From an uncultured delta proteobacterium (GTDB taxonomy: Bacteria; Desulfobacterota; Desulfomonilia; UBA1062): DNA of 64,000 nt. Made by a program: the position numbers and the translations under genes. The notes under the pieces are model-generated. The model was not told the origin of the DNA, searched no databases, and saw nothing but the letters and a program-made list of their open reading frames with translations. This document shows positions 4,271 to 29,116 of the stretch, in pieces. The DNA is taken from assembly GCA_963785235.1 (NCBI GenBank), contig CAWAUM010000001.1, forward strand, positions 608,001-672,000, in the 5' to 3' direction. Positions within the stretch are counted from its first letter, which is position 1. Each line of letters begins with the position of its first letter.

Positions 4271-5140
4271 TCAGAAGGTTCTGATGACCGAAACACCCAA
4301 ACTATTGGTGCCTATTACAGGTTTTACAACAAGTCTTCCACCATCGGAAGTAGTTATTCCCCTGTTTACTATGTCAAATTCTCTTGAAGTTGAAAGCGAA
4401 GCAATCCCCGACAGGGCAATGGTTCCAAATATGTCTGTTAGGTAGTGTTCCCCAGCTTCAACCCGTGCCCATCCAATGAGGGCTGTTGCAATTGTTGCAG
4501 GGATTCCCATTCTCCAGCCGTAGTATTCCCAGCCCTTGAACATCAATACTGATATTCCTACCATGTGTCCACTTGGGAAAGAAGAAACCCCTCTGAAAAC
4601 GTCATTGATGCCCCCGCTTCGTTCATCCTCAAGTCCCCTTTCTATATTAGGTCTTTGGTGAAATGGTATTTGAGAGATGGCGCCGACTTCAAGAAGTACA
4701 AGCATGTGTGTTGCCGTAACATCCATGGAAAACTGAGTCAGTTTTTCATTATTTGTTGCACGACCCCAAAAGTAGCCACCAACTTGGATAATTGGGATAT
4801 TAATAATCCAACCATTAATATCGCCGGCCTTTTGACCATATTTACCCAGAACATCGGCTCTTTGAATTACCTCTTGCTGGTGCATTTCGTCCACGGAAAG
4901 CAGATAGGTCATTCCTCCTGTGGCCCCCAGGAGGAGTACAGAATCCCAATTTGTAAATTGGTTCAAAAATCCTTTTCCAGAAAGCTTCAGAACATCTATA
5001 GCATCTTGTCCTACGGCATGTTCTCTTGAAATGAATTGCCTGGAAGAATTTTCACTTTCTGTATTGTTTTGGCTGTACGCAGATATAGGTAAAAAAAGTT
5101 GGATTAGTAAAAACGCTATAAAAAAATAAGTATCCTTCAA
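4271..5140 (-). CDS. PAP2-family phosphatase with signal peptide
   Basis: RP..., SFPSGH and RV...HY.TD acid-phosphatase motifs. Confidence 0.75.
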   Translation of the reverse strand: MKDTYFFIAFLLIQLFLPISAYSQNNTESENSSRQFISREHAVGQDAIDVLKLSGKGFLNQFTNWDSVLLLGATGGMTYLLSVDEMHQQEVIQRADVLGKYGQKAGDINGWIINIPIIQVGGYFWGRATNNEKLTQFSMDVTATHMLVLLEVGAISQIPFHQRPNIERGLEDERSGGINDVFRGVSSFPSGHMVGISVLMFKGWEYYGWRMGIPATIATALIGWARVEAGEHYLTDIFGTIALSGIASLSTSREFDIVNRGITTSDGGRLVVKPVIGTNSLGVSVIRTF

Positions 5141-5182
5141 AGTTGAGTGTTCCTGCTCGGCTGTACCCGGATAAGCGACCTC

Positions 5183-6949
5183 TCAGCGCTGCACCCACTC
5201 GACTGCGCCGAATTTGGCTTCGCCAAGCCACGTATAAACGAGGCCGACAGTTCCCGCCCTCTGGTGCGTTTCAGCCCGGTTCTCAAACTGCGCATCACGG
5301 ACTGACCCGATGTATTGTATCCCGAGGGCGTGATGGTTGTAAATGCGAACGGTGAATCCCATGTTCAGGCGCTGGATGGTTTCATTTCCTCCCGGGTCAT
5401 CACTACCCATGCCGGACACGTAGTATAAGCGTCCTGTCAGGTCGAGCATGGCCCTGTTGCCAAAGATGAGGCGGAGCGCGAGCAGACCCTGTGGTGCAAT
5501 GCCGAAGTGGTAGTCGCGCAGGTCCTCGGTTGCGGTGTCAACACCGGCTTCAGGCTCGGGCTGGGTGTCATTGCCGGCCGCAGCGTAACCGACACCCCCG
5601 AGAACCGAACCCTGGAGTGCTACCATTCGCGAAAGCCACCATTGATAGGTAGTGCCGAGAGCGGCCGACGTGCTTGAGACGCGGAAGATGTGCGGCGATA
5701 TATAGTCATAACCGCCATAGAGGCCCCATATCCCGCGATAGGAATTGCCGATCTCGTAGTCCTTTCCCAGCAGCAGGCCTCTGATCATGATATTTTCAAT
5801 AGGGTTATCTGAGTTGCCTATTGTGGTGGCTTCAAAATGGAAATAGTCGAAAGGACGCGTGTACCTATATCCGGGCTTCCCGGGCAGCCCGTAGGCCATC
5901 AGGAAGTCCCCGGTCGCCTCGGTCTTGTCAATGGTATCATCTTGGTCGCTCAGGTGCACATTCTTACTTACCCCCAGGCGCACCCGCCAGAAGGTGGCCG
6001 GATCATGGCTCGGAAACACTGGCTTGAACCGGTTGCCGAAGGCAAGGCGATTGATACCCGTGGCCGGTGAAATCACTGTTGCGCCAAACTCGCGCCAGAA
6101 CCCGGGTTTGCTGCCATCGCCCTCGAGCACCAGGCCGGACATCCGGAAGAGTGCCTCCCCGAAGAAGCTCCCGCCGAAGCCGCTGGCTATCTGGTCATTG
6201 TAGGAGGGACGCGTGTTCTCCCCGCCCGTTTCCCAGAGAAAGCTGCCCGCGTTGTCGTAGACGAGCGCTTCCCAGTAATTGAGGCCTGCAGACCTGGCGA
6301 AGCCATGGTACATGGATCCCTGATACGGGTGTGCGAACTGGTTTATGTTGAAGGCGTCCGAGTCGATCCCCCAACCTCCGTGAACGATGTGGTTCCGGAA
6401 GGTTTTCCAATTCGTGGAGTAGACTTTTTTTCCTCCCGTGTACTCGTCGGAGTAGGCGTACCGGTCATACCTGTTCAGGAGAAAGAGGAATGCCGGGATT
6501 TCGAGTGCCGGGATGAGGTAGCTCTTGCCATCCCCCGTCCCCCAGGGTTCGGCCTGTGTCGTCTCCTCGGGCTTTTCCTCCAACAGCTTTTTACTGCCCA
6601 TAGAGATATTTACAATCCGGTTCGGGGCCATAGGGGAAAGCCCCGTCACATCAGGTGCCGACATAGTGATATATCCGGGTTTTGAGGCTATGAGGGTATA
6701 ATTCCCCAGGGCTGGAATTGCCACTGAATAGTTACCCGACGCATCAGTAGTCCCTGATCCTGCCAGCGTACCGATATTTATATCCTTTACTGTGATGATT
6801 ACCCCGTCAATACCCTGGTTGTCAGAGAGATCCTTTACGGAGCCCGAGATACCGCCTCCCTGGGCAAAGGCCCAGCTGCCAACAGAGATCACTATTCCCA
6901 CAAGGGGCACTATAAGAATCGTCTTAATTGTTTTTGTTGCATGGTTCAT
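5183..6949 (-). CDS. Outer-membrane/secreted protein: carboxypeptidase-regulatory-like N-domain plus DUF3943
   Basis: Signal peptide, ISGSV...GTTDASGNY beta-sandwich, D.D.F.INQFAHPYQGS.Y..ARS motif, beta-strand-rich C-terminus. Confidence 0.65.
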   Translation of the reverse strand: MNHATKTIKTILIVPLVGIVISVGSWAFAQGGGISGSVKDLSDNQGIDGVIITVKDINIGTLAGSGTTDASGNYSVAIPALGNYTLIASKPGYITMSAPDVTGLSPMAPNRIVNISMGSKKLLEEKPEETTQAEPWGTGDGKSYLIPALEIPAFLFLLNRYDRYAYSDEYTGGKKVYSTNWKTFRNHIVHGGWGIDSDAFNINQFAHPYQGSMYHGFARSAGLNYWEALVYDNAGSFLWETGGENTRPSYNDQIASGFGGSFFGEALFRMSGLVLEGDGSKPGFWREFGATVISPATGINRLAFGNRFKPVFPSHDPATFWRVRLGVSKNVHLSDQDDTIDKTEATGDFLMAYGLPGKPGYRYTRPFDYFHFEATTIGNSDNPIENIMIRGLLLGKDYEIGNSYRGIWGLYGGYDYISPHIFRVSSTSAALGTTYQWWLSRMVALQGSVLGGVGYAAAGNDTQPEPEAGVDTATEDLRDYHFGIAPQGLLALRLIFGNRAMLDLTGRLYYVSGMGSDDPGGNETIQRLNMGFTVRIYNHHALGIQYIGSVRDAQFENRAETHQRAGTVGLVYTWLGEAKFGAVEWVQR

Positions 6950-8824
6950 AGCTGCTCCTTTTCCTCTCCATTGAACGGGATCTCGAGTTCATAGACACCG
7001 GATTCAAGGTGGGTCTTCATGGGGTGTCCTGTCTTGGAGAACACCTTCATCATGGGGGTGTTCCGGGCCAGGACATCTGCCGTGAATCCTTTGATATTCT
7101 TCTCTTTGGCTATGCGGACCAGGTACTGGAGGAGAAACGTGCCGATGCCCCGGTTCTGCCAATCCTGGTGGGTGGTGAAGGCGACCTCGGCAAAGTTGGA
7201 ATGAGGGTCGCGGATGTATTGCCCTACCGCAACGATCTGCTCCCTGCTCTCGGGTTCTTCTTTGCCCGTGATCGCGACAATGGACATCTTGTCATTGTAG
7301 TCAATGGCGGCCATGGGCATGGCAACCTTGTGGGAAAAGGACTTGAGGCTATGGAAGAACCGGGTATAAATGTCCTGCTCAGGCAGGGCATACATCTGAT
7401 CCTGAATTGCCCGTTCATCCGTGGCCTTTACCGGTCGGAAGAAGATCTGGGTTTCTTTCTTGTCGGTCCAGTAGGTCTCATATTCCTTCGGATAGAGCAC
7501 TACAGGCAGGGTCTGATCCTTATAAATATAGCCTTGGTTCTTGGCTGCCTCCAGCAACCCCTCGCGGAAGTCTGGATGGGCTATATTGATCAGTACCATG
7601 GCCCGATCCCGTATGGATCTTCCCGTGCACATAGGCAATTCCATATTCCGTGACCACATAATGGATGTCACCCCGGGTGACGACAACACCACTGCCGGCA
7701 GAGAGATAGGGGACGATCCTGGATATTTTTCCATCATCCGTGGTGGATGGCAGCACCATGATGGATTTGCCCCGTTTGGACATGGCAGAACCCCGGACAA
7801 AATCCACCTGCCCGCCGATGCCGCTATAAAAATCAAAACCTAGAGAATCGGAGCATACCTGTCCGGTAAGATCCACGGTGAGCGCGGAATTGATGGAGAC
7901 CATCCTGTCATTCTGGGCGATTACATAGGGATCGTTGACATACTTGCACGGCCGGAATTCAAAGAGCGGGTTGTTGTGTACGTAGTCATACAGTCGCTTT
8001 GTTCCCATGCAGAAGGATGCGACGATTTTTCCGGGATTCAGCGATTTTTTCTTGCAGGTGATGACACCCGCCTCTATGAGATCGATGAGGCCTTCGGTGA
8101 AGGTTTCGGTGTGAATACCCAGGTCTTTTTTGTTCATGAGGTAGGGAAAGACCGAATTGGGTATCTTTCCCACACCTGTCTGGATAGTGGATTCGTTTTC
8201 GATGAGATCGGCGATAAGTTCACCGATGGCCTTGGCAATATCGCCTGGTGCTTTCTGTACGAACTCCAAAAGTGGGACATCGTTCTCCACAAAGGCATCG
8301 ATCTCGCTCACATGGAGGAAGCTGTCGCCCAGTGTGCGGGGCATGTTCGGGTTCACCTCTGCCACGACATACTGGGCAACCTTGGCTGCCGTCTTGGTTA
8401 TATCTACCGAGATCCCCAGGCTTACATACCCGTTATTGTCGGGAGGGGACACGGTGATGAGGGCAACATCGATGTGCATGCTGCCGCTTTCCATGAGCAG
8501 CGGGATCTCCGAGAGGAAGATGGGAGTATAGTCCGCCCTGCCTTCCTTGATGGCGGCACGTGTGTTTGCGCCGATGAACAGTGCGTTGTGGCGGAAGTGC
8601 TCAGTATATTTCTCATCAGTATATGAGGCTAGGCCGAGATCCAGAAAATGGATGATCTCGGTGTCTGCAAGGTTCTGAGCCACATCGATGAGTGTCTTTA
8701 CCAGGAGTTGGGGCTCGCCGCACGCAGAGCCGATGAATATCCGCGCCCCCCTCCTGATCCGGGAGAGTGCGGTTGTCGCATCGGTGAGCCTTTCTTTATA
8801 GGTGTCGTTCCAGTTGAGTATCAT
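6946..8824 (-). CDS. Acetyl-CoA hydrolase/4-hydroxybutyrate CoA-transferase fused to C-terminal GNAT; frameshift near 7620
   Basis: LGIHTE, VDLTGQVCSDS, GIGGQVDFVRG, VVTEYGIA in 7520-8824; continues in another frame to AEVAF...WQNRGIGT GNAT motif. Confidence 0.85.
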
Positions 8825-8833
8825 AGTAAACTC

Positions 8834-9793
8834 CTATTGATGCCCGTCTGCGTTTTTGGGCTGAACCTTTGTGGGACCGGATTGTTCGTGTTCAATTCCC
8901 CCAACTTCCCGTTGCTTCTGCCGATGCTGAACATAGGCATCGCGTATGGCCTCGTAGGGATCAATGGCCGCCCCTTTGAGGGTCTCATAATCACCGATGC
9001 TCAGCGAGGTATAGTTCACCGCCTCATATACACTGACCCCCAGACTGGTGTACCAGGGACGGATATAGGAAACGGGGTGCAAATAATAATCACCGGCGAG
9101 ATCTACCGAATCCCGGGCACTTGAGGGCCCCACGAGGGGCCAGACAATGTAGAAACCATGCCCGACGCCATAAACTCCGAGCGTTTGTCCCAGATCCACG
9201 TCATTTTTCTCTAAATTCAGTTTCTTGTCGGATGCAAGGTCAAAGAGGCCCCCGATACCCCAGATGGTGTTGATAGTGAAGCGGCCAAGCTCCTTTGCGG
9301 AGGATGTTATTTCCGCCTGGAGCAGGCAGCTGACAAAGCGGATCGGAAACCCGAGATTGTAAAAGAAATTTTTAACGCTTACCCGTGCGAACTCAGGCAC
9401 GATCATACCATAGCCTTGGGATACCGGTTTGAGTGCCCAGAAGTAGAACTTGTCGTTGAACTGGTACATGGCCCGGTTGAACGGTTCCATAGGGTCTGAG
9501 ATGGTTACTGTCGGCTCTTCTTCGCCCGTGTAATCACCGAGATTCTCATATGTGGCCCCTGTCTGATCCTGCATGGAAACGGGTTTGTCTTTCGCCTCGA
9601 CACCCACGGTTTGTGGTTGTACGGGTATCTCCGGGGGGGTCACAGGGCTTTGTTCCGACTGGGAGTCGTTCGAGGCCTGCAGGGGGGCGGCGGTTGAAAG
9701 GGAAGGGCCCGTGGAGGGCGCCTGGTCAGGATTGTGGGCACAGCCTGCGGCAAAAAGGGCGAACAGGGCTATCAGATATGCATACTGTTTCAT
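8834..9793 (-). CDS. mlaA: MlaA/VacJ lipoprotein
   Basis: Lipobox AAGC; DPMEPFNR, RFTINTIWGIGGLFD, DLGQTLG, GPSSARD, DPYEAIRDAY. Confidence 0.9.
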   Translation of the reverse strand: MKQYAYLIALFALFAAGCAHNPDQAPSTGPSLSTAAPLQASNDSQSEQSPVTPPEIPVQPQTVGVEAKDKPVSMQDQTGATYENLGDYTGEEEPTVTISDPMEPFNRAMYQFNDKFYFWALKPVSQGYGMIVPEFARVSVKNFFYNLGFPIRFVSCLLQAEITSSAKELGRFTINTIWGIGGLFDLASDKKLNLEKNDVDLGQTLGVYGVGHGFYIVWPLVGPSSARDSVDLAGDYYLHPVSYIRPWYTSLGVSVYEAVNYTSLSIGDYETLKGAAIDPYEAIRDAYVQHRQKQREVGGIEHEQSGPTKVQPKNADGHQ

Positions 9794-9802
9794 GTTGTGG
9801 TC

Positions 9803-10396
9803 CTAGTGCTCTTTCACCTTTTTTCGCAGGATTTCCAGCAGCTGCTCGGGTGTATTCTTCTCCAGGATATTGTTGAACTGGGTTCGATAGTTCTGGACCA
9901 GGCTGACATTTTCAACAATGACGTCGTATACTTTCCAAGTCCCGCTGCTTAAGATAACCCGATAGAAAATAGGGATTTTATTTGACGAGGTGATAACGTG
10001 CGTCTGTACCTCGACCTGATTTTCCGTGAGCTTGATTTCCTTCTCATAAGTAATTTTCTCGTTGGTGTAGGAAAGGATTTTATCCACATAAGCCTTTTCC
10101 AGCACCTCCTGAAAGAGCTGGACGAATTCTTGGCGCTGGGCGGTATTCAGCTTGTTCCAGTTTCGCGCCAGGGTGCGCTTGGAGAGTTCGACTTCGTCGA
10201 ACATGCTTCCATAGATAGACCGGAGTTTTTCTTTCTTGGTCACTTTGGCCGAATCGGCCTTGAGTGCCGGATCGCGCAGCACATCAAGCACTTTGTTGAC
10301 ATTAGCCTGGACCGTAGAGAGTGGTGCGTCGGCATATGCGGGAAGCAAAGAAAAAAAGATCATGAAGATTGCTAACCCACCAATTTTTAATTTCAT
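9803..10396 (-). CDS. mlaC: MlaC/Ttg2D phospholipid-binding protein
   Basis: WKVYDVIVENVSLVQNYRTQF motif; signal peptide. Confidence 0.9.
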   Translation of the reverse strand: MKLKIGGLAIFMIFFSLLPAYADAPLSTVQANVNKVLDVLRDPALKADSAKVTKKEKLRSIYGSMFDEVELSKRTLARNWNKLNTAQRQEFVQLFQEVLEKAYVDKILSYTNEKITYEKEIKLTENQVEVQTHVITSSNKIPIFYRVILSSGTWKVYDVIVENVSLVQNYRTQFNNILEKNTPEQLLEILRKKVKEH

Positions 10397-10423
10397 AAGA
10401 GAATCCTCCTTACGTTTCTTTCA

Positions 10424-10880
10424 CTATGGCTTCTTGACTTCACCGAAGACATATTTGCTGATGAGTTCTGCGATATCCAGGGGCGGTTGCGTTTCGGTAA
10501 TGATACCTCCTGGTTTAAGGAGTGCACTTCCGCCTCCAGGGTCTATGCTGACATCCATATCGCCGATCAGTCCTTCCGTTTTAATGGAAGCGATGGCATT
10601 ATCATATATATTGATACCCTCATGAATCCTCAGCTCCACCACGCCCTTCTGGTTTTTCTGATCGATGGTAAGTCGCTCCACCCGTCCGACCTCAATGCCC
10701 GATATATACACGAGGCTCCCGACTCTCAGCCCTGTAACCGTGGTGAAACGGGCGAATAGGGAGTAGGAATTGTCGCCCATAAAAGGAAATGTGACCGAGC
10801 GTAACTGTCATATACCCTACGCAGAGCAGCCCGATAACGAGAAAAATGCCTACTGCAGTTTCAATCGAGTACTTTTTCAT
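10424..10880 (-). CDS. mlaD: MlaD MCE protein; frameshift near 10785
   Basis: ETAVGIF TM segment (10692-10880) then GLRVGS.V.ISGIEVGRV and IKTEGLIGD (10424-10780). Confidence 0.85.
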
Positions 10881-10884
10881 GACG

Positions 10885-12139
10885 TTACTCCTTTGTGGAA
10901 CACAGAAGCCGGCCTATTTCCTTTTGCCCTGATTTTGCAGATTTGAAGACGGCTTCTATGTCGGTATTTGGTTGTCCTTGGGCCAACCCGGCGTGGATCG
11001 CTATCTCGATACATTCCCCTGAAACTCCTCGCCTGCGGCCCCTGATGCGAATGTCACGAATTCCCTGCTCCTGGAAATCCTTGATGAAAACCTTCAGGAT
11101 TTCTTCAGCCTCAGCCAGATCCGAATAGGGCAGGACCGTCACAAACTCATTGGCACCACGGCGCGTGGAAAATCCCCCGATGGCCCCGAAATGTTTATCA
11201 ATGTATACCCCCATGGCATGTAACACCTGCTGCGCCTCCTCGTAGCCCAGGCCTTCTACAATTTCATCGAGCATATACAGGGTAAAAATCGCCACGGTAT
11301 AGGTATTCCCGATAGTTTTTTGTTTCAGCTGAGCATGATACAAGACATTGAACTGCCTCCTGGAGTGCAGGCCCGATCAATTCATCCCGCAATCCTTCCA
11401 GGCTTTGGATGACCTCGTCTTTAAAAGGGTGATCGAATTTATCAAGCTCTTCCGGAGTGCCCTGAAAAACGATTTTTCTATCATAGAGGGCAAGAATACG
11501 GTTTGAGATGAAATACACATCGGGAATCTCGTGACTGACCAGGACCGCAGTAAAACCGAATCTCTTCTGGTACTGGGCGATCATGCTCAGGATTGCATTT
11601 TTTCGGACAGGGTCCTGCCCGGAAGTGGGTTCGTCAAAAAGCACGATCTGTGGATCTATGACCAGGGAGCGTGCCAGGGCCACACGCTTCTGCATACCGC
11701 CGGAGAGTTCGGAGGGAAACTTGTCGGCCGCATCCGACAACTCTGTCTGTTCGATTCTGGCCATCACCAGAGAGTCTATTTCAGCCTTGCCCTTTCTCGT
11801 TGTTTCGCGTAGCGGCAGCGCAATATTTTCATAAACGGTCATGGAGTCGAACAGGGCATTGTCTTGAAACATGTAGCTCATCCGGGCAAAGGAGGCGATC
11901 TTCTCGTGTTTTTTCATTTCAGCAAAGGGTTTGCCCCGGAAAAGGATGGTCCCTTCATCGGGGGTGAGCAGCCCGATGATATGCTTGAGCAGGACACTCT
12001 TGCCGCCGCCGCTCAGGCCGATGATGGTCGTGACCTGCCCCTCGAAGATCTGGAGGTTTACCCCCTCGAGGACTGTTTTGGATCCGAATCTCTTTGTGAC
12101 ATCCTTGAATTCGATCAGCGGCGTATCCATGGGGCTCAC
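10885..12139 (-). CDS. mlaF: MlaF-type ABC ATPase probably fused to a degenerate GGDEF-like domain; frameshift near 11360
   Basis: Walker A GLSGGGKS, LSGGMQKR, FDEPTSGQD; then DELxGL and, in shifted frame, RRGANEFVTVLP ...I.IHAGLA fold pattern. Confidence 0.7.
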
Positions 12140-12918
12140 ATCAGAAGGGATGTCACGACATAGTCCGACACCAGAATGAGGACACAGGAGATCACGACGG
12201 CCGAGGTGGTGGCAAGCCCGACGGCCTTGGCCCCATGGCTATCCGTGCGCATATGCGCGAAATATCCCTGGTAACAGCAGACAGTGGAGACGATGAGAGC
12301 AAAAACGATTGCCTTGATGAAACCGTCGGTGATATCTTTCATGTCCAGACTGGTTTGAACACGATAAAAATAGGTTCCGGCATTCGCACCCAGAAGCAGT
12401 ACCCCGGAGATATACCCGCCGATTATGCCGATGAGATCAAACAGTGCGGTGAGCAGGGGAAAGCTGATGACTGCAGCGACAATCCTTGGACTGATGAGAT
12501 ACCCAATCGGGTTGATGCGCATGGTGTAAAGCGCGTCAATCTGCTCGGAGATACGCTGGATGCCTATCTCTGCACTGATGGCGGACCCTGCCCTGGCTGC
12601 AATCATGATGGCTGCGAGAACAGGCCCCAATTCCCTGACCAGGGTCAGGGATACAAGGACGCCGAGCGCTCCTTGAGCGCCGACTGAATTCAATGCATAA
12701 TACGTTTGGAGGCCTAGGACCATACCCGTAAACAGGCCGACGAGCATGATGATCAACATGGACCGTGCCCCGATGTAATAAATATGCTGGACAATCTTGG
12801 ATAGCTGCTTGTGCCTTATGATCTTCAGCAATGCCAGAATAAGGAAAATGCCCGCAGCACCTAAATTATCGATCCCATTGATCACCACCCTCCCGATAGC
12901 AGCAAATGGTCGCGACAA
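12136..12918 (-). CDS. mlaE: MlaE ABC permease (true start may be upstream, ~12983, with a frameshift)
   Basis: RELGPVLAAIMIAARAGSAISAEIG, EQIDAL, GAKAVGLATTSAVV. Confidence 0.9.
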   Translation of the reverse strand: MSRPFAAIGRVVINGIDNLGAAGIFLILALLKIIRHKQLSKIVQHIYYIGARSMLIIMLVGLFTGMVLGLQTYYALNSVGAQGALGVLVSLTLVRELGPVLAAIMIAARAGSAISAEIGIQRISEQIDALYTMRINPIGYLISPRIVAAVISFPLLTALFDLIGIIGGYISGVLLLGANAGTYFYRVQTSLDMKDITDGFIKAIVFALIVSTVCCYQGYFAHMRTDSHGAKAVGLATTSAVVISCVLILVSDYVVTSLLM

Positions 12919-13080
12919 GATCGAAAAAAGGCGCCTTTCGGCTTCATTCTCAGGGGGGTCAGACTGTTTGAATCAAGAGCCATGGTTAATATCCCATAAG
13001 ATCATAAAAAATCAGATAGATATGCCGAATACGGGAAAGTACCTTTCTTTGTGTAATGATAGGGAACATACAAATGTATG

Positions 13081-13227
13081 AGCAAATGGCCTGCCAATAG
13101 CAGAAAAAAGCTCATAATATTATAATCAACCTATGAAAACGGTTAGTTAAATGAATAGGACAGCAGCTCAGAAAAATGAACTGCTTCTTTTAGCCTCCAT
13201 ATTTGGTGGACCCTCAATATGTTGAGG
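13081..13227 (-). promoter_or_regulatory. Sigma54 promoter cassette P1 (heads the mla operon)
   Basis: Minus-strand TTGGCAGGCCATTTGCT at 13081-13097; palindromes cctccatatttggtgg (13194) and cctcaatatgttgagg (13212). Confidence 0.85.
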
Positions 13228-13253
13228 GGTATCTCACGGGGGAATTCCTTCCT

Positions 13254-13568
13254 CTACTTCACGATCAGATTGTTCTTGATGGATTTAACCCCTTGGACGC
13301 TCGTTGCGATTTGGCCGGCTTTATCGACGGCCTTTTGAGAATTAACGAAGCCGCTCAATTGAACAGTGCCCTGGTAAGTTTCAACACTGATCTGGAATGA
13401 TTTGAGAAAATCATCTTCTGCAATCAGAGCTTTTATCTTGGTTGTGATGACTGAATCGTCAACGTATTCACCGGTGCTTTGATGTGTGGGTGTCGATGCA
13501 CAGCCCACAACAACGGTGATCAGCATAAGAAGCACTAAGCAGTTGATAACAATATTTCTATTTTTCAT
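13254..13568 (-). CDS. BON-domain (OsmY-like) lipoprotein
   Basis: VVGC lipobox, STGEYVDDSVITTKIK, ISVETYQGTVQLSGFV. Confidence 0.9.
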   Translation of the reverse strand: MKNRNIVINCLVLLMLITVVVGCASTPTHQSTGEYVDDSVITTKIKALIAEDDFLKSFQISVETYQGTVQLSGFVNSQKAVDKAGQIATSVQGVKSIKNNLIVK

Positions 13569-13675
13569 AGCGATTAATCCTCCTTGGTATATTTGATTGT
13601 GATATGGTTCACTACGAGAAACTTTCTCCTGACAGTATCTTTTTCATAAAATCCTTCTTTTATCCTTCTGATGCT

Positions 13676-13900
13676 TTATTTTTTTGCTCCACCTCCAATG
13701 ATGACCAGCGCAATTCCGCCCGCAAGCGCAATGCCACCCAAAATGGGTGAAAACGGGATGGTTTTCTCAGTCTCTTGGGTAGCTTGTATGGGGCCAATAT
13801 CAATGATCTTCTCGCGGCTTGTGTAAGTAATGCCCTGGTAGGCAAGGGCCATTACTCCGAAGACGATTAATACAATTCCAGTAATCATTGCCGGCTTCAT
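13676..13900 (-). CDS. DUF3185-like small membrane protein
   Basis: GIVLIVFG...YQGITYT.REKIIDIGPI.A...KTIP..PILGG pattern. Confidence 0.7.
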   Translation of the reverse strand: MKPAMITGIVLIVFGVMALAYQGITYTSREKIIDIGPIQATQETEKTIPFSPILGGIALAGGIALVIIGGGAKK

Positions 13901-19619: not shown

Positions 19620-19662
19620 TTTAACTCCATGTAACCTTGGCGTTGTAGTAATACTCTCCCTG

Positions 19663-20049
19663 TCAGAATACGTTCGTGCTGTTGCATATGCATCTTACTT
19701 CAACCCCGTTTTCAATCCTGGCAAGATTCTTCACGACGGTGTAATCCAATCCGGCTATTTCTCGTGCATTTCTTGCAGTCTTAGGAGGATTAGACTTGAA
19801 TACCGGATTATGCCACGGAGATGGTTCCTTCCCGGGATATGGTAGGTGAGTGGGTGGAACCCGTAGACCCAGCCTGCATAAGGATGCCTCACTCACTGTA
19901 GACCCATACGATGGATGATCTGCTGCAGTAATAGTGAAGAGCGCAAAGAAATCTCCCGATAAAGTTTCCTGCCACCCAATGAAATTCGCATCTGAATTCG
20001 AACCAGGTGTATTCATGTGTTCAGGCATGTTAGCCTCCGTTTGCATCAA
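19663..20049 (-). CDS. Hypothetical protein
   Basis: ORF directly behind P5; GGAGG RBS before the ATG of MPEH; no recognised family. Confidence 0.45.
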   Translation of the reverse strand: MMQTEANMPEHMNTPGSNSDANFIGWQETLSGDFFALFTITAADHPSYGSTVSEASLCRLGLRVPPTHLPYPGKEPSPWHNPVFKSNPPKTARNAREIAGLDYTVVKNLARIENGVEVRCICNSTNVF

Positions 20050-20077
20050 GTAATCCTAGTGGTGTAGGTGAGTAAAA

Positions 20078-20226
20078 AGCAAATAGCCTGCCAATAGCCG
20101 AAGGAAGATCAATAATATAGATTAAACAATTAATTACAAATTGTTAGGCGAAGAAGAGAGAGCCGCAGGAAAGTATGAAATGATCCATTTGACCTCAATA
20201 TTTGGTGGTTCCTCAGCATATTGAGG
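20078..20226 (-). promoter_or_regulatory. Sigma54 promoter cassette P5
   Basis: TTGGCAGGCTATTTGCT at 20078-20094; palindromes at 20193 and 20211. Confidence 0.85.
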
Positions 20227-20268
20227 GATAGGGCAATGGCCCCCCTGGAATCAATACCAAGTGATTTT

Positions 20269-21303
20269 TCATTTTCTTAGTTTCCATTTTCTTGTTAGTA
20301 GTTGGGCTGTTGCTATTTGGGAAGATGTCATTTTTTGAACAACCATATCCCTTATCTTGGCAGCTTCCTCATCTCCTTGTGCAGCAGCAAGGTTGGTCCA
20401 TATGTGCGCCCGAACAAAATCTCTTGGTACACCTTGGCCATATGCATACATAACCCCAAGGTGGTACTGGGCACTGGAATTGCCCTGATCGGCCGCTTTT
20501 CTGCACCACCTCATTGCCTCGGCATAGTCCTGTGGAACGCCTTGGCCATTTGCATACATAGCCCCAAGGTTGTACTGGGCACCGGCATGCCCCTGCTCGG
20601 CCGCCTTTCTGTACCACCTCGCAGCCTCGGTATCGTCTTGTATTACGCCTTGGCCATCTGCATACATAACCCCAAGGTTGTACTGAGCTCCGGCATTCCC
20701 CTGATCAGCCGCTTTCCTGAACCACCTCACCGCTTCTGAATAGTCCTGTACTACACCTTGTCCATTAAGATACATCCACCCAAGGGTGTACTGGGCATCG
20801 GCATCGCCCTGGTCAGCCGCCTTTCTATGCCACCTCATCGCCTCCATATAGTCCTGTGGTACACCTTGGCCATGTGCATACATACCCCCAAGGTTGTACT
20901 GGGCCTCGGCACGTCCCTGATCAGCCGCTTTCCAGTACCACCTGACCGCCTGGGCATAGTCCTGTGGAACACCTAGGCCATGTGCATACATGACCCCAAG
21001 ATTGTTTTGGGCACCGGCATGCCCCTGAACGGCCGCCTCCCTGTACCACCTCAATGCCTCGTCATCGTCTTTCGGAACACTTTGGCCATTAAAATACAAC
21101 CCTCCAAGGCTGTACTGGGCTCCGGCATCGCCTTTTTCTGCCCGTTTCATCAATTCATGTAATGGGGCTTTGTAGTCCCCACTATCGAAAGATTCATGGT
21201 CATCCCCTCTGGATATGTTAGGGAATATCAGGAGAAGCAAAGTTGTAAGAATAATTGCCATTTTCATGGAATTTTCCTCATTAAGAAGGCAGCATCTGGT
21301 CAA
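20269..21303 (-). CDS. Sel1-like repeat protein, secreted (likely start MKMAII)
   Basis: About seven 36-aa repeats AQYNLG.MY..GQGV.QDY.EA.RWYRKAADQG, visible as 108-bp DNA repeats. Confidence 0.95.
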   Translation of the reverse strand: MTRCCLLNEENSMKMAIILTTLLLLIFPNISRGDDHESFDSGDYKAPLHELMKRAEKGDAGAQYSLGGLYFNGQSVPKDDDEALRWYREAAVQGHAGAQNNLGVMYAHGLGVPQDYAQAVRWYWKAADQGRAEAQYNLGGMYAHGQGVPQDYMEAMRWHRKAADQGDADAQYTLGWMYLNGQGVVQDYSEAVRWFRKAADQGNAGAQYNLGVMYADGQGVIQDDTEAARWYRKAAEQGHAGAQYNLGAMYANGQGVPQDYAEAMRWCRKAADQGNSSAQYHLGVMYAYGQGVPRDFVRAHIWTNLAAAQGDEEAAKIRDMVVQKMTSSQIATAQLLTRKWKLRK

Positions 21304-22144
21304 TGGAAGAAATGAGGGCCTTCTTCAGTTTGACCTTTGATTTATTCTCGATCTGCCGTACCCGTTCCTTGGATATGGCATACTGCCTTCCAAGGTCTTC
21401 CAATGTCGCAGGGGTTTCGGTCATGATACGATGCTGCGTGATATAACGTTCTCTTGGTGTGAGATTGTCCATGGCCTGGTCGATCTCCTTTTTCATAAAG
21501 GAGGTCTGCTGCGATTCAATGATACGGTCTTCGGGGCTCAACGTCGTATCAGCAAGAGAATCCAGGAAGGTGGTATTACTCCCGTATGTTATAGGGTTGT
21601 CCAGGGACTGGTCCCTGTTTGTCAGCCTCAATATGATCTCCTCGATCTGTTGGGGGTCGGCATTGAGGCGTAAGGAGAGGGCCTGGGACTGCTCGCTGAT
21701 ATCTTCACCTACGACTTCCTCTTCAGCCGTAATACGGTTGAGTCCATAAAACAGTTGTTTCTGCAGTCTGGTCGTACCGAGCTTGACCTGGGAGAAGAAC
21801 CGTAAGATATAATCATGGATCATTGCCTTGATCCACCATATTGCATAGGTCATGAGCCGATACCCTTTGTGCGGATTGAACTTCTTCACTGCGATCACCA
21901 GCCCTATAATCCCTTCCTGAATTGTATCTTCCAGGGGCAGGCCATACCCGGCATAATCCATGGCGATCCACACTACGTTTTTGAGATTGGCAGTTATGAG
22001 GCGCTCCGCAGCATCAAGATCGCCTTGATCCTTCAGAAGGACAGCGAATTTATATTCTACCTCTTTGGTGAGATGGGGAACGTGTTTGAACCGATCTATA
22101 AGTTCACCAACAGCATGATCGCGTATGACAGGATAAGGCATCAT
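21281..22144 (-). CDS. RpoH (sigma32)-like sigma factor
   Basis: YAGYGLPLEDTIQEG, KKFNPHKGYRLMTYAIWWIKAMIHDYILR, RpoH-box-like VKLGTTRLQKQLFYGL, ISKERVRQIE. Confidence 0.9.
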   Translation of the reverse strand: MMPYPVIRDHAVGELIDRFKHVPHLTKEVEYKFAVLLKDQGDLDAAERLITANLKNVVWIAMDYAGYGLPLEDTIQEGIIGLVIAVKKFNPHKGYRLMTYAIWWIKAMIHDYILRFFSQVKLGTTRLQKQLFYGLNRITAEEEVVGEDISEQSQALSLRLNADPQQIEEIILRLTNRDQSLDNPITYGSNTTFLDSLADTTLSPEDRIIESQQTSFMKKEIDQAMDNLTPRERYITQHRIMTETPATLEDLGRQYAISKERVRQIENKSKVKLKKALISSIDQMLPS

Positions 22145-22353
22145 GAACGCATCCTTGTGAAGCCGGCGGATTCTGCAGGTCTGCTGGGATTAATGGAAAC
22201 GGTTGACTGAAGGGCTCGAGCAATTTTTTCTGCAACGATACGGGGCGACATATCTTTATCAGGATTGAAGACATCACTTCTTTGCTGTCCCCACCCCGGA
22301 TCCAGGAGTTCGGTCCTGATAACATCAAGAATATCTAACAGGTCTACGCTCAT
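22141..22353 (-). CDS. Small hypothetical protein, translationally coupled to sigma factor 2
   Basis: ATGA overlap with the sigma gene; first ORF after P6. Confidence 0.5.
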   Translation of the reverse strand: MSVDLLDILDVIRTELLDPGWGQQRSDVFNPDKDMSPRIVAEKIARALQSTVSINPSRPAESAGFTRMRS

Positions 22354-22439
22354 TTTTTTTGTATAACCTTATCCCTTTTTATTGGTGCTCACGGTGTCAA
22401 AAATAACTACTCGATAGTCATCATGACAGCTACTGTAAT

Positions 22440-22587
22440 AGCAAAGGGCCTGCCACTAGCCGAAGGAAGATCCGAAATCGGAATCGATCATTGATAACAT
22501 GTGGTTAGATAAAGCGGATAGGGAGCCAGTAAGGTGTGAAATGATTCATTCAGCCTCAATATTTGGTGGTACCTCAACATGTGGAGG
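22440..22587 (-). promoter_or_regulatory. Sigma54 promoter cassette P6 (ORF-sigma factor 2-Sel1)
   Basis: GTGGCAGGCCCTTTGCT at 22440-22456; palindromes at 22554 and 22572. Confidence 0.85.
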
Positions 22588-22820
22588 GATTCTTTGAAGG
22601 GAGATGGGTATTCTCATCCGGGTTTTTTGTCTCCGACCGGACTACATCAAGCCGGCAAGAATGCCGAACCACATGAGAGTGGAGTACCACGGTATGGATT
22701 CAAATAAAAACATAGTAAGGAACCCCCTGTTTCCCGGTTTAACAAAGGGCCCAAGAGCGCTACGCATGGCGCTTCGCTCCTGGGCCACTTCGTCCGTCAG
22801 ATATGATTCTCTTTCCCAGC

Positions 22821-23768
22821 CTACTGCATGGGTGTTTGCGCGTCGCGTTGGATGATGATTTCGACGCGACGATTGTTGGCGCGACCCTCGGGGCTGGCGT
22901 TATCAGCAATTGGGGTTCCCTCGCCAAGCCCATGGGCCTTGATACGATCGGCCTGGTAGCCTCGCTCCACGAGATAGTTTCGAACTGCGTCTGCCCGGCG
23001 CTGCGACAGGTCGAGGTTGTAGCTGTCAGAGCCCTGTGAGTCGGTGTGTCCCTCGATGATGAGGTTGCGCTCACGGGTTGTGAGCAGTACATCGCTCACT
23101 TGGTCGAGTCGCGACCGCGCCGAGGGCAACAAGGTCGACTTGCCGGATGCGAAAAGCACACTCCCGGATAGGGTGATGATTATTCCGCGCGGGTCCTCCT
23201 TGACCGCGGCCAGCTTAGCCAGGGCTTCAGCCATTCGTTGCTCGGCATCGTTCTGCGCCGCCAGCGCTTCAGCCGCTCGTTGCTCGGCATCGGTCCGCGC
23301 CTTTTGCTCGTCGGAAAGCTGCTCTGCCGTCTTTTCGCCGCTGAGCTCAGAGGCCGCAAGCGCCGTCTGTGTATCGCTCAGGTCCTGCTTCGTCTTTGTA
23401 ACAATCTTGCCCTGCGTCGTTTGATAATCTTTACTCGATTGAGTCTGGCTCTTTTTCTCCATAGCGATGGAGGCCGTTGCTTCAGCTAACTCTGCCTTGC
23501 GCTGGGCGACATAGGCGAGGTCTCGCGTATGATACGAGTCGGGATTCTTCTGGAAGGATTGTTCCGCCTTGTCGAGCGCTTGTTTCGCCACATGCAACTC
23601 CGCAGGAGCGGCCTGGGCCGCAACGCCAGTGCTTGCGCGCTGGTATGCTCCGCGGGCGTTGACGAGCTCCTTCGGGGCGGTGGACGCACAGCCGGCGAAG
23701 AGCGTGACGACCGTGATGAGGATCAGATATTGTATCGTTTTCATATAATGCTCCTTTCTTTGGGTCAT
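22821..23768 (-). CDS. DUF4398 + OmpA-family lipoprotein
   Basis: FAGC lipobox, coiled coil, VLFASGKSTL, EGHTDS, LSQRRADAV, NRRVEI. Confidence 0.9.
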   Translation of the reverse strand: MTQRKEHYMKTIQYLILITVVTLFAGCASTAPKELVNARGAYQRASTGVAAQAAPAELHVAKQALDKAEQSFQKNPDSYHTRDLAYVAQRKAELAEATASIAMEKKSQTQSSKDYQTTQGKIVTKTKQDLSDTQTALAASELSGEKTAEQLSDEQKARTDAEQRAAEALAAQNDAEQRMAEALAKLAAVKEDPRGIIITLSGSVLFASGKSTLLPSARSRLDQVSDVLLTTRERNLIIEGHTDSQGSDSYNLDLSQRRADAVRNYLVERGYQADRIKAHGLGEGTPIADNASPEGRANNRRVEIIIQRDAQTPMQ

Positions 23769-24130
23769 GGGTTGTCTTGCCGGAGTTTGCGCACACGCTC
23801 CAATGCTGCCCGGGCCTCCGATTTTTCGGCATCCTCGTGGGAGAGTGCGACAGCCAGCTCGGCATCGGCTTCGGACCGCAACAGCATAGACGCGGCCTCA
23901 TCCTTCTCGCCTTTCGCAGACAGCTTCTGGGCGAGTTCCAGTTCTTCTTTTGCCATTTGCAGATGAAGCGAGGCTTGCGGTACCTTGGCCGCCCCGACCT
24001 CCTCTGCGGCACGGATCCCCGACGTAGAAGCCTCGGAGCGCAGCGGGGCGTTTGCGCATCCCGCAGTGATGAGAGTGGCCATGACGGCCATGGAGAACAT
24101 CATAATTACGATCTTGGATAGGTGTCTCAT
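23765..24130 (-). CDS. DUF4398 lipoprotein
   Basis: TAGC lipobox; IRAAEEVGA, AKEELELA, EADAELA. Confidence 0.8.
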   Translation of the reverse strand: MRHLSKIVIMMFSMAVMATLITAGCANAPLRSEASTSGIRAAEEVGAAKVPQASLHLQMAKEELELAQKLSAKGEKDEAASMLLRSEADAELAVALSHEDAEKSEARAALERVRKLRQDNP

Positions 24131-24263
24131 TGAATCCTCCTTTAGCTACTGATTTTCACTCATCCGAATTCAGTTGTTACGGATTGAGTCGATAGTGACG
24201 TATTCAAAAAGATGTTCCTTTGTTAGACGAATTCATTTTGAGTTCTCGTGCACGATAAGCACT

Positions 24264-24416
24264 TCATATCCGCCCCAGCAGCAGCAGAATGATCAAAATC
24301 AGAACAATCAATCCGAGTCCTCCGCTGGGATAGTATCCCCAGCTCTTACTGTGAGGCCAGGTTGGCAGTGCTCCGACCAAGATGAGAATCAAAATGACGA
24401 TCAGTATCGTACCCAT
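24264..24416 (-). CDS. DUF3309-family small membrane protein (50 aa, not in ORF track)
   Basis: Manual translation MGTILIVILILILVGALPTWPHSKSWGYYPSGGLGLIVLILIILLLLGRI; AGGAG RBS. Confidence 0.9.
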   Translation of the reverse strand: MGTILIVILILILVGALPTWPHSKSWGYYPSGGLGLIVLILIILLLLGRI

Positions 24417-24495
24417 GTTTTTCTCCTTTTATAGCGTGAGCTATTGACCTTACCTCTGCCCTTCAACCTTCAAGTTGATTTTTAACAAGTTTAAG

Positions 24496-24643
24496 AGCAA
24501 ATGGCCTGCCAATAGCCAAAGAAGATCAGATAAATGCAATCAGTCATTAATAACTGATGGTTAGATGAAAAGGAGAGGGTGGTATAACGTGTACAAATGA
24601 TCCGTTGGGCCTCCGTATTTGGTGGAGCCTCAACATATTGAGG
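24496..24643 (-). promoter_or_regulatory. Sigma54 promoter cassette P7 (DUF3309-DUF4398-OmpA)
   Basis: TTGGCAGGCCATTTGCT at 24496-24512; palindromes at 24610 and 24628, just past the activator stop codon. Confidence 0.85.
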
Positions 24644-24668
24644 GATACTTGGTTGAAAGGTAGACAGC

Positions 24669-26649
<1,981 letters not shown>

Positions 26650-26659
26650 GTTTTCGCAC

Positions 26660-27004
26660 TCATGAATTCCTGGGTTTCAGATCGATGCCTACAAGAAACT
26701 TTTCCGTATCCGACATGTCGCCGATGAGCCTCCGCAGGGGCAGGGGGAGTTTCTTGATGAGCGTTGGGGCGGCAACAATCTGCTCTCCCTTGGCAAGATT
26801 GGGCTGCTGGTAGATGTCTATCACCTCGAGTTCGTAGCTCCCGGCCAGGTGTTTATCACAGAGTTTCTGGACATTGGCGATCGCCTGGGTCGACTTTGGG
26901 GTCATACCGGTAACATACAGCCGGAGAATGTACTTTGACGGGTCTCTCTTGGTTGCCGCTTTTTCGAATTCCGCAGTGCTCGTTTTCACTCTTTTCATAT
27001 CCAT
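26660..27004 (-). CDS. kaiB: KaiB-family protein (copy 2)
   Basis: [26 protein letters not shown]...[22 protein letters not shown]. Confidence 0.9.
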
Positions 27005-27039
27005 CTCTGGTTCACCTTAAATTGATTCTTTATCATCCG

Positions 27040-27366
27040 TCAGACAGGACGAATGTCGAGTCCCACCAGCACACGTTCTGTGTTGGCCAGATCACCGATA
27101 ATCTTTTTAATCGGTTCAGGAAGCTTCCTCACCAGTGTCGGTATGGCAATAATCTGGTCCCCTTTAGCAAGCTGGGGGTTCTTTAAAAGGTCTATCACCT
27201 CAATGCGGTATTTCCCGGCGAGGTGCTCTTCGCAGATCTTCTTTAAATTAGCAAAGGCCGTTATGGATTTCTGGGTCTGACCGGCTACATATAACCGGAG
27301 GTTCCAGATTTCATCCGTAGCAGCGGTCTTTGATTTCTTCCCTTTTTCTGGTGAGACAGTTTTCAC
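27040..27366 (-). CDS. kaiB: KaiB-family protein (copy 1)
   Basis: [48 protein letters not shown]. Confidence 0.92.
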
Positions 27367-27367
27367 C

Positions 27368-29116
27368 TTACTCTCCTTTCCCTCTTTTTTTTGAACGCGA
27401 CGCCTGGGGAGCTGAAGGTTTCCCCTTGCGAAGATGCGCCATTTCCAAGCGGTCTTTTGCCAGGACAGCCTGTCTTATCCTTTCTTCTTCGGCCATCAGA
27501 TGCACCTCTTGGGTTTCCACATCGAATTCGGCACGCAGCGCTGCTATCTTTGTATCAAGGGCTTTTCTCTTGCGCTCCTGCTCGCGGAGCCTGCGATCCG
27601 CCTCACGCCGGCTTGCCAGCTCAGAGGCCCTTTCTCCGGCTTCCTGGGCCGCCCGGGCACTGCCCGTTAATACCTCGCCGGAACCGGTATAGATGTCGAT
27701 GAGGTCAATTCCCTGGTTCGTGAGCAGGAACTCTTGAATCTGGTTGGAGTGGGCCATGCCGCGGGACTTCAGAATGTACAGGCCCCGGTTGCGTTCCCCG
27801 TTGAGCTCGATATCCCGCAGGAGAAGCCACGTATCGATCAGAGAAGATACCTCTTCGCTTGTGTGTTCAAGGCTGCCTCCAAAATGGGTGAGGTCCGTAA
27901 GGAAAGTGGAGATCTTTTTCATCTTCAAATGGTCGATCAGGCGCGTTAATATGGATTTGACCTCTGATGTTGTTCCCGCGGCGCTCAGGTTGCTGATGGG
28001 GTCTATAATGAAAACCTGGGGATTGAAATCATCGATCACCTTGTGGAAGGTGAGAAGATGCATCTCAAGGCCGTAAAGGGTAGGCCTTGTCGAATGAAAC
28101 TTGAGAAGCCCCTTCTTTACCCACCGGGAGAGATCCAGGCCGATGGAGCCCATGTTCCGGATGATCTGGCTGGGGGATTCCTCGAAGGCGCAATACAGGC
28201 ATCGCTCACCCCGCCTGCAGGCGGCTTCGGCAAAGGTGGCAGACAAACTTGATTTGCCTGTGCCCGCCGTACCTGAGACGAGGATGGTGGTGCCCCGGTA
28301 GAAACCCTTCCCATCGAGCATTGCATCCAGCTTGGGGACGCCTGTGGCGATGCGCTCTCTGGAAACGGGGTAGTCGAGTCCCAGCGAGGTGATGGGCAGG
28401 ATGGAGAAGCCGCTCTCGTCTATCAGGAAAGGATACTCGTCGGCGCCGTGAGATGAGCCGCGGTACTTGACAATACGCAGACGGCGGGTGGAAATTTGCT
28501 CCTCGATGCGGAAGTCCAGAAGGATAACGCAATCAGCCACGTATTCTTCGAGCCCGTAGCGCGTCAGCATCTTGTCGCCGCTTTCCCCCGTAACGATGGC
28601 CGTCACACCGCGGTCTTTCAGCCAGTGGAAAAGCCGGCGAAGCTCTGCCCGAATGATTGCGGCATTAGAAAGCCCGGAGAAAAGTGCTTCTATGGTATCC
28701 AGGACAACCCGCTTGGCCTTGATGGAATCAATGGCACTGCCCAGGCGGATGAACAATCCTTCCAGGTCGTACTCGCCCGTCTCCTCAATCTCGGATCGTT
28801 CGATGTAGACGTGGTCCATAGTAATGAGTCCCTGCGATATCATGTCATTGACATCAAAACCCAGCGAGATGAAATTCTTCGCAAGATCCTCGGGCGTCTC
28901 CTCGAAGGTCATGAAGACGCCTGGCTCTCCATAATCCATGGCGCCCCGCATGAGAAACTCCATGGCGAAAAGTGTTTTGCCGCAACCCGCACTGCCGCAG
29001 ATCAGGGTTGGCCTGCCTTTGGGAAGCCCTCCCTTGGTGATCTCATCGAGACCCTTGATGCCTGTCGGGCATTTTTCAAGAACCTCAACTGCATGTTTTA
29101 CCTTAACCATCTTCAT
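27368..29116 (-). CDS. kaiC: Double-domain circadian clock protein KaiC (KaiC2-like, C-terminal coiled coil)
   Basis: Two Walker A motifs ([16 protein letters not shown]), two FEE catalytic motifs, KYRG/KSRG fingers, VSSLIDT at the phosphosite position. Confidence 0.95.

Follow-up and report, generated by a model that had tools for sequence, protein, structure and literature searches.

In Synechococcus elongatus, the state of the Kai complex is passed to transcription by the KaiABC-SasA/CikA-RpaA system, in which partner proteins read KaiC or KaiB-bound KaiC. An operon comprising kaiC, kaiB and a PAS/histidine-kinase gene is known from Rhodopseudomonas palustris and Rhodobacter sphaeroides (PMC4794148). 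The Rhodobacter KaiC is a dodecamer that acts as a KaiA-independent hourglass, with the ATP-to-ADP ratio as its driver; the accessible part of this structural paper names no kinase and mentions output twice (PMC10076222). The PAS domains of KidA bind KaiB, and the presence of PAS genes beside kai genes outside cyanobacteria has been remarked upon (PMC9478674). Here we analyse a 64,000-nucleotide stretch (the window, to which plain coordinates refer) from an uncultured delta proteobacterium of the Desulfobacterota (GenBank assembly GCA_963785235.1, contig CAWAUM010000001.1, positions 608,001 to 672,000), in which kaiC, two kaiB genes and a sigma-54 activator gene adjoin seven transcription units headed by a common promoter/enhancer cassette. 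On balance, we favour reading this block as an island of sigma-54-dependent genes, one of whose activators is coupled to a Kai timer, as judged from gene order, domain architecture and motif conservation.

The locus is a variant of the known Kai-PAS-effector operon class, with operators and targets visible. It is like the R. palustris and R. sphaeroides operons in its order of kaiC, kaiB and a PAS signalling protein, and differs in its sigma-54 AAA+/helix-turn-helix (HTH) effector and its two kaiB genes. The window KaiC is of the structural type of the Rhodobacter protein 8DBA, and a PAS kinase with the same N-terminal module is present in 40 of 69 loci judged below. Since the effector in the window is a sigma-54 activator, no response regulator would be needed, and the DNA targets lie next door. 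In contrast to S. elongatus, no KaiA was detected here (PF07688 matched nothing in this genome, 93% of which is present, and did match in the Synechococcus control), and the predicted route runs through sigma-54 and an enhancer-binding ATPase, not through a two-component phosphorelay to an OmpR-type regulator. By description, KidA resembles the window activator in being a PAS protein associated with Kai, but it tunes the oscillator period, carries c-di-GMP domains and is not a transcription factor.

On the sigma-54 side, the locus resembles the classical enhancers of bacterial enhancer-binding proteins (bEBPs), such as NtrC at glnAp2 and the NifA upstream activating sequence, in its tandem dyads about 100–150 bp upstream of GG-N10-GC, its GAFTGA-containing AAA+ domain and its Fis-type HTH; it departs from them in the unusually stereotyped cassette (fixed length, conserved spacer, 11 copies) and the Kai-specific input domain. 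RedR1 and RedR2 are reportedly a paralogous bEBP pair sharing promoters, and the window is similar in that paralogs appear to converge on the same promoters. In the Rrp2-RpoN-RpoS cascade of Borrelia, a sigma-54 activator switches on another alternative sigma factor gene; in comparison, the window has two sigma-32/RpoS-like putative targets plus direct targets, and a different upstream input. The original prediction for this stretch, made from the letters alone, knew of no described Kai-to-sigma-54 circuit, and our literature search likewise found no Kai-sigma-54 link, subscription journals and supplements lying outside the search and the KaiB/enhancer-binding query being swamped by unrelated matches. 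As far as the parts consulted go, PMC12288465 and PMC6822775 contain Kai and sigma-54 terms in unrelated contexts.

The four genes at the head of the block lie on the minus strand and are separated, in the order kaiC, kaiB, kaiB and activator, by gaps of 1, 35 and 10 nt; together with Pfam matches, this spacing bears out their earlier description as a tight block with a GAFTGA-containing sigma-54 activator. kaiC (27368–29116; 582 aa) matches PF06745 in two stretches (E 1e-110), and its product scores 739 bits against NCBIfam NF006799 (cut-off 408). The closest solved structure is 8DBA from Rhodobacter sphaeroides (E 8e-196, residues 14–551 aligned). Alignment with it locates the Walker A motifs GSAGCGKT and GTAGTGKS and the FEE motifs, takes in the C-terminal coiled-coil extension and places the SS phospho-site pair on the SS of the Rhodobacter protein; by sequence, KaiC is of the Rhodobacter type, with a predicted C-terminal coiled-coil extension and SS phospho-sites. 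The first kaiB (27040–27366; 108 aa) and the second (26660–27004; 114 aa, with an acidic N-terminal extension) match PF07689 at 96.6 and 91.9 bits (cut-off 27), and both stay under the NCBIfam cut-off of 110 for the cyanobacterial KaiB equivalog (101.5 for the first). The two-kaiB arrangement is retained in most of 80 KaiC loci that we collected from many phyla, which were selected by likeness to this KaiC and are hence mostly of the same type. Adjoining the 5' side of kaiC, a consensus scan returned a sigma-70-type promoter-like site (29143–29170, minus strand; TTGCCA, 16 nt, TATAAT with TG; 11 of 12 matches), which by consensus match alone is the top site in 12800–30000.

A third kaiB (112 aa) is an orphan that resembles the second operon copy; it is distant from the kai operon and flanked by unrelated genes, at positions 198993–199331 of contig C5 of the source genome, G000 (L115:4994–5332, minus strand). 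We rejected a KaiB match in the related genome G011 as a sign of a kai operon, as it is the 96% ortholog of this orphan copy and the sole KaiB found there; the G011 contig begins inside the activator gene.

The sigma-54 activator gene is carried in two minus-strand frames. The upstream frame (25246–26649) encodes an N-cap, two PAS domains, a signalling helix and the first part of the AAA+ domain, which reaches Walker B and includes GAFTGA (Sigma54_activat profile positions 1–112), and the downstream frame (24669–25286) encodes the end of the AAA+ domain (profile positions 111–167), the AAA lid and a Fis-type HTH (HTH_8). Pfam places PF00158 across both pieces, along with PF25601 and PF02954, and GAFTGA was confirmed in an alignment with a paralog. 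No kinase domains (HisKA/HATPase) were found by Pfam in this protein, which has the sigma-54 AAA+ and HTH domains in their place.

The N-terminal end of this activator co-occurs with kaiC. The module (26110–26649, minus strand) consists of the N-cap (residues ~17–61) and the first PAS domain (~61–176) and was delimited in an alignment (A4) of 50 sequences, in which A31, I32, G35, D38 and N84 are invariant; the motif EAEETLRAIRxGEVDALVV...GD.VFTL.GAD.PYR precedes the PAS core. Solved structures resemble the PAS core only, for example heme or ligand-binding PAS domains such as that of DosP (E 1e-10). When a profile of this alignment was run over 41 genomes (G000 and 40 related genomes), the outcome was bimodal: there were ten full-length matches at 160–276 bits, and the rest covered the PAS core only, at no more than 88 bits. 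All ten full-length matches lie within 2.5 kb of one of nine KaiC genes of the Rhodobacter type. By comparison, the activator of G024, a genome without detectable Kai, is 23% identical over the module stretch and lacks the N-cap. The N-terminal module thus follows Kai, and the AAA+/HTH end the cassette. Co-folding of both KaiB copies with activator residues 1–180 (a 50-row alignment for each) scored 0.06 against a mark of 0.32, a value that counts neither for nor against a contact. In G032 (C44:4375–9680), genes with the Kai-type N-cap/PAS flank the same kaiC on both sides, and a second kaiC locus has its own.

The original prediction had proposed a search for kaiC-kaiB-kaiB-bEBP synteny across genomes, and the 80 KaiC loci provide it. 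In most of them, the gene after kaiB or kaiB-kaiB opens with a homolog of the first 170–300 residues of the activator, with identities of 27–47% in distant phyla and 64–87% in Thermodesulfobacteriota (one at 46%). Effectors were classed with small purpose-built hidden Markov models (HMMs), the kinase model being built from 18 of the same loci; 11 of the 80 loci were too short, and among the 69 judged, 26 have a sigma-54 domain after kaiB, 40 a histidine-kinase ATPase domain and three neither within 3.3 kb. In all 26 activator-type loci, KaiC is at least about 75% identical to the window KaiC; 38 of the kinase-type loci are distant and two are close (L089 and L090, with modules 72–74% identical to that of the window). 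Pfam identified PAS kinases in 16 of 16 sampled distant genes and in L089 and L090, and activators in L033, L038 and L039. The sigma-54 domain starts 660–2190 nt past kaiB, and the number of PAS domains between module and AAA+ varies while the first module is constant. An unrooted tree of the module, in which L105 was labelled a kinase by default though no kinase domain was found there, requires at least four changes between kinase and activator, and its well-supported branches force two. Members of the module family occur in archaea as well as in many bacterial phyla. They are common in metagenomes from wetlands and sediments, where a search returned 1199 protein clusters at E ≤ 1e-20. Of the best 120 clusters, 113 have a sigma-54 domain and seven have kinase domains; those clusters that are named have generic names, for example 'formate hydrogenlyase transcriptional activator'. 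The arrangement of domains and genes points to a specific link between Kai and the activator.

The other half of the argument concerns the cassettes. The pattern TGGC-N7-TTGC occurs ten times in the window compared with 2.93 ± 1.60 times in shuffled sequences, and none of 100 shuffles reached ten. Seven of the ten matches, all on the minus strand (13082, 14475, 15610, 17082, 20079, 22441 and 24497), read TGGCAG[GA]C[CT][AC]TTTGC. Aligned, these seven reveal a cassette of ~165 bp with 61 invariant columns, in the order CCCTCAATATGTTGAGG, then CCACCAAATATTGAGG (the two lying about 110–130 bp upstream of the -24 element), then a conserved spacer. All seven are oriented toward the next gene: P7 (24488–24656, with its -24/-12 elements at 24497–24511), which starts 13 nt past the activator stop codon, P6 (22432–22600; 22441–22455), P5 (20070–20239; 20079–20093), P4 (17073–17243; 17082–17096), P3 (15601–15770; 15610–15624), P2 (14466–14635; 14475–14489) and P1 (13073–13240; 13082–13096), each on the minus strand. 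Seven units each led by a sigma-54 promoter/enhancer cassette had been noted in the original prediction, which also cited tandem palindromes ~100–150 bp upstream of the -24/-12 elements as the established sites of enhancer-binding proteins; both features were recovered. When 46 distinct cassettes from several genomes were mapped, the two palindromes proved to be centred about 127 and 109 bp upstream of the -24 GG. An eighth TGGC-N7-TTGC match, at 13722, was rejected as a promoter, as it lies inside a small membrane open reading frame (ORF), has no cassette and is probably due to chance.

A profile of the window seven found 11 full cassettes in the 3.9-Mb genome, all intergenic and all facing the next gene; the four outside the window have E values of 7.7e-34 to 7.4e-25, and the next best match has E 0.14. 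Profile models were used throughout, exact or degenerate enhancer patterns having caught at most 22 of the 46 cassettes. Among 45 aligned cassettes, length differs by a few bases, and the invariant columns lie in the palindromes and in TGG...TGC. The spacer blocks TCTAAC...TGTTATTAA are also conserved, and their fit to the consensus for integration host factor (IHF) is weak; the genome has eight HU/IHF-like genes, none above the IHF-alpha family cut-off. A degenerate remnant of the activator 3' end (17271–17399, minus strand), which the HTH query matched by tblastn at 58% identity across 43 aa, lies 30 nt upstream of P4. A similar HTH remnant precedes a cassette in L026 (13826–13894), such remnants lying 30–34 nt upstream of cassettes that no longer stand behind an activator gene. 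These remnants show that cassettes spread by copying of the activator end together with its cassette. In the relative L046, a cassette (6566–6736) lies 265 nt upstream of kaiC (at 7001), an arrangement in which the kai operon would be under its own activator.

The cassette travels with the C-terminal end of the activator. We searched the HTH in 96 sequences (the 80 KaiC loci, 15 further loci and the window) and found it at 73% identity or more in 26 places, at 24 of which a cassette starts 24–87 nt past the HTH; the two places without one are L051 (3.4 kb of sequence) and L102 (474 nt of sequence). At 11 intact activator genes whose HTH shares no more than 60% identity there is no cassette, only about 920 nt of sequence being present at seven of them. 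Across the 41 genomes, the cassette model matches in seven (G000 11, G011 10, G003 7, G001 2, G024 2, G004 1 and G005 1), and an activator C-terminus of at least 72% identity is found in six of these (the exception is G001) and in none of the 34 cassette-less genomes. At L033, where the HTH of the Kai-linked activator is 49% identical, a different tandem palindrome, CCTGATATATCAGGA / TCCTGATATATCAG, spans the gene's own stop codon, and some 117 bp downstream of this palindrome stands TGGCACACATCCTGC, with a TGGCAC-N5-CTGC element; in this single case, the architecture is the same and the operator a different one. On genomic grounds the link is strong, and the activator family is predicted to bind the cassette.

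The family has three members in this genome. Of its ~32 sigma-54 activator genes, just three carry this HTH at 82% identity or more, and rpoN is present at C11:186555. Two are intact PAS/sigma-54 paralogs of 553 aa, 99% identical to one another, each of which lies directly before a cassette. They are 82% identical to the C piece of the Kai-linked activator, with a common HTH stretch starting LG[LM]; one of them aligns with the Kai-linked activator at 63% identity from residue ~193 and near-identically from ~296, i.e., from the signalling helix on, and the sensor ends are unrelated. The claim that the activator acts on the cassettes is thus upheld genomically by the co-occurrence of HTH and cassette, but not for one activator alone, given that two paralogs with another sensor end also adjoin cassettes. 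In the sense that this HTH and motif also serve proteins with other sensor ends, the motif does occur with different bEBPs, an outcome that the original prediction had itself listed as counting against it.

Each of the seven cassettes in the window is followed by a minus-strand unit, with families assigned by Pfam. Among the genes so placed are small ones of stress and envelope function, the operon for Mla lipid transport and two for alternative sigma factors. Unit 7 (22821–24416) consists of a DUF3309 small membrane protein (24264–24416), a DUF4398 lipoprotein-like protein (23765–24130) and a DUF4398-OmpA protein (22821–23768), identified by Pfam and ORF calls. Unit 6 (20269–22353) contains a 70-aa ORF (22141–22353), a sigma-32-type sigma factor (21281–22144; 250.4 bits in the NCBIfam sigma-32 subfamily NF005143, whose cut-off is 241) and a Sel1-repeat protein (20269–21303). 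In unit 5 (17444–20049), three proteins without a family (19663–20049, 18984–19619 and 18537–18971), for which no NCBIfam match was found, precede a PEP-CTERM protein (17986–18414) and an SRPBCC/polyketide-cyclase-like protein (17444–17884). Unit 4 (15880–17029) pairs a PilZ-domain protein (16721–17029) with a DUF3108-like protein (15880–16668); in L046, a PilZ gene and a sigma-70-family gene also stand behind a cassette. Unit 3 (14701–15486) is a second alternative sigma factor of 261 aa, RpoH/RpoS-like, with Pfam regions 1.2, 2 and 4 and a score under every NCBIfam equivalog cut-off.

Unit 2 (13254–14458) encodes an ABM-domain protein (14153–14458), a small membrane ORF (about 13676–13900) and a BON-domain protein (13254–13568), assigned by Pfam and from the sequence; elsewhere, no gene stands first behind a cassette more often than ABM. 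The ABM ATG lies 16 nt past the TTGC of the -12 element (14458–14489, minus strand), which would leave the predicted transcript hardly any leader. The ABM genes of L056, L030, L037, L026, L045, L024 and L041 start 4–8 nt past the end of the cassette model. A further BON-domain gene (29456–29773, minus strand), similar to that of unit 2, adjoins kaiC upstream and has no cassette. Unit 1 (4271–12918) comprises MlaE, MlaF-GGDEF-like, MlaD, MlaC, MlaA, acetyl-CoA hydrolase/transferase-GNAT, a DUF3943 protein and a PAP2 phosphatase. MlaF-GGDEF, MlaD and the hydrolase-GNAT gene are split (at about 11372–11376, 10770–10780 and 7619–7623, respectively), and intact fused orthologs are present in G024. 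The fusion of the MlaF ABC ATPase to a GGDEF-like domain (10885–12139, minus strand) occurs also in L026 (3102–4346) and is 414 aa when intact in G024; the acetyl-CoA hydrolase/transferase-GNAT fusion (677 aa in G024) lies inside the Mla operon, and both fusions are unusual for an Mla system.

For 49 cassettes, we surveyed the two ORFs that come first behind each. Among the 58 of these ORFs that lie outside the window, many fall into the families ABM, DUF3309, DUF4398/OmpA, PilZ with a sigma factor, and PEP-CTERM. Usp, dodecin, glutaredoxin, DUF932 and a PLD enzyme are found there as well, besides many ORFs without a family. Elsewhere in the source genome, cassettes precede genes for a PAS kinase-receiver hybrid with a CheB-CheR fusion; CsbD, YflT-like and DUF748 proteins; ABM-CsbD and triple-BON proteins; and a PKD protein with a GDSL lipase. 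The first of these sets, behind the cassette at C1:369k, also includes a coiled-coil/PAS_10 protein (L001:2593–7304; G000:C1:364592–369303), and a PAS kinase-receiver hybrid stands behind a cassette in L038 too. DUF932 proteins of about 365–375 aa are the first gene behind cassettes at L068:12424–13548, L046:13532–14629 and L054:5141–6232; none is found in the window block.

Several observations weigh against control of this regulon by Kai. Cassettes occur in four relatives (G024, G004, G001 and G005; 99, 92, 98 and 71% complete, respectively), three of which have the activator, and no KaiB was found in any of the four; KaiC-family matches there are weak and RadA-like. The 26 activator-type loci form one clade and are kin, not independent cases. 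Gene order carries no signalling direction, and the module could instead feed into Kai. The two intact paralogs, whose HTH is the same, might suffice for all 11 promoters, and the Kai-linked activator would be dead in this strain if its frameshift is real; nothing appears at the frameshift site among the indel rows listed for contigs of four metagenome runs, which are short pieces of relatives. Given that the regulon is kept without Kai and that paralogs have the same HTH, Kai would be at most one of several inputs. What stands of the proposed Kai-gated regulon is therefore the Kai-specific module on the activator, and what falls is exclusive Kai control. A regulon independent of Kai, in which the PAS domains of the activator sense a small molecule, redox or light and kai is merely co-transcribed, or in which the module is an input to the Kai timer as with CikA and KidA, would account for cassette and activator being kept in relatives without detectable Kai, for the other sensor ends of the paralogs and for the likeness of the PAS core to that of DosP; KidA, moreover, is described in the available part of its paper as an oscillator modulator and not as an output (PMC9478674). 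We nevertheless consider it unlikely, as the full-length module lies beside kaiC in ten of ten matches, the Kai-less activators lack it, and it is joined to an effector, either kinase or sigma-54 AAA+/HTH, in 66 of the 69 judged loci, a layout more in keeping with an output transducer than with an input alone.

A different objection is that the Kai-linked activator is a true pseudogene here, with the seven promoters driven by the two 553-aa paralogs only and Kai left without this output. The window copy is not one reading frame, whereas its orthologs are uninterrupted at 659–682 aa. DNA alignment places one extra base at 25262–25298 (minus strand; the tblastn pieces overlap at 25270–25298) relative to four intact relatives: G011 (97% protein identity), G003, the genome's own paralog and G024. 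That the shift falls mid AAA+ domain and outside any long homopolymer speaks for a genuine lesion, as do the intact paralogs with the same HTH. Yet both halves are otherwise undamaged, with no further stops and a C piece 97% identical to G011, and among 13 intact genes of G003 and G024, four are split in the window within otherwise highly conserved operons (activator, MlaD, MlaF-GGDEF and acetyl-CoA hydrolase-GNAT). Judged against intact orthologs or full-length Pfam profiles by frameshifts or gaps, five genes are split in the first 27 kb: AcrB (949–4130), acetyl-CoA hydrolase-GNAT (6946–8824), MlaD (10424–10880), MlaF-GGDEF (10885–12139) and the activator (24669–26649). Stops also break three of the eight HU/IHF-like matches of the genome, and at 7619, within the hydrolase split, one base is missing from the contigs of one metagenome run. 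Indel errors seem to be frequent in this assembly; because four of 13 compared genes are split alike in a 20-kb stretch, we favour an assembly indel as the probable cause of the frameshift, and loss of the activator in this strain is accordingly improbable. We give still less credence to the view that duplication has spread the cassette as a selfish or structural repeat, that another factor or none at all binds it, and that its -24/-12 look is incidental. Conservation of the full 165 bp, beyond recognisable elements, and the activator 3'-end remnants before two cassettes, a mark of segmental duplication, would suit such a repeat. Against it, all 11 copies are intergenic and point toward the next gene, the invariant columns coincide with the palindromes and the GG/GC promoter elements, cassettes in other genomes are followed by the same gene families, and the cassette is confined to genomes with a matching HTH in six of seven cases; a repeat of this kind is thus very improbable.

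For a sigma-54 regulon island with an attached Kai timer, the following course of events can be proposed. KaiC would serve as a KaiA-less hourglass or a sensor of the ATP/ADP ratio, as in the Rhodobacter KaiBC system, and the N-cap/PAS1 module would read its state, probably via the KaiB-KaiC complex. The module may then free or block assembly of the AAA+ ring on the tandem palindromes, and the assembled ring would act at up to 11 promoters to open the sigma-54 holoenzyme. Induction of two sigma-32/RpoS-like factors could broaden the response, and the two 553-aa paralogs might bring other signals to the same promoters, alone or in mixed rings. No RNA sequencing run with the window stretch was listed, and the best DNA run has 0.33 of its words.

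More generally, we tentatively put forward, as a possibility that falls somewhat short of even, that in strictly anaerobic, non-phototrophic syntrophs a KaiA-less KaiBC hourglass reads the energy state of the cell (ATP/ADP) and acts directly on transcription via a dedicated Kai-binding N-cap/PAS module on a sigma-54 ATPase, switching on a general-stress/envelope regulon that includes sigma-32/RpoS-like factors. The module would be a portable adaptor, plugged onto kinases or sigma-54 activators at least twice. The ~180-residue N-cap/PAS module is the obvious place to seek the Kai contact, and the whole path would be testable in one reconstituted system of KaiC, two KaiB proteins, an intact activator ortholog, RpoN holoenzyme and one cassette reporter. 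The locus bears on what KaiA-less KaiBC systems control outside cyanobacteria, as here the putative transducer is itself a transcription factor with its operators and targets adjoining.

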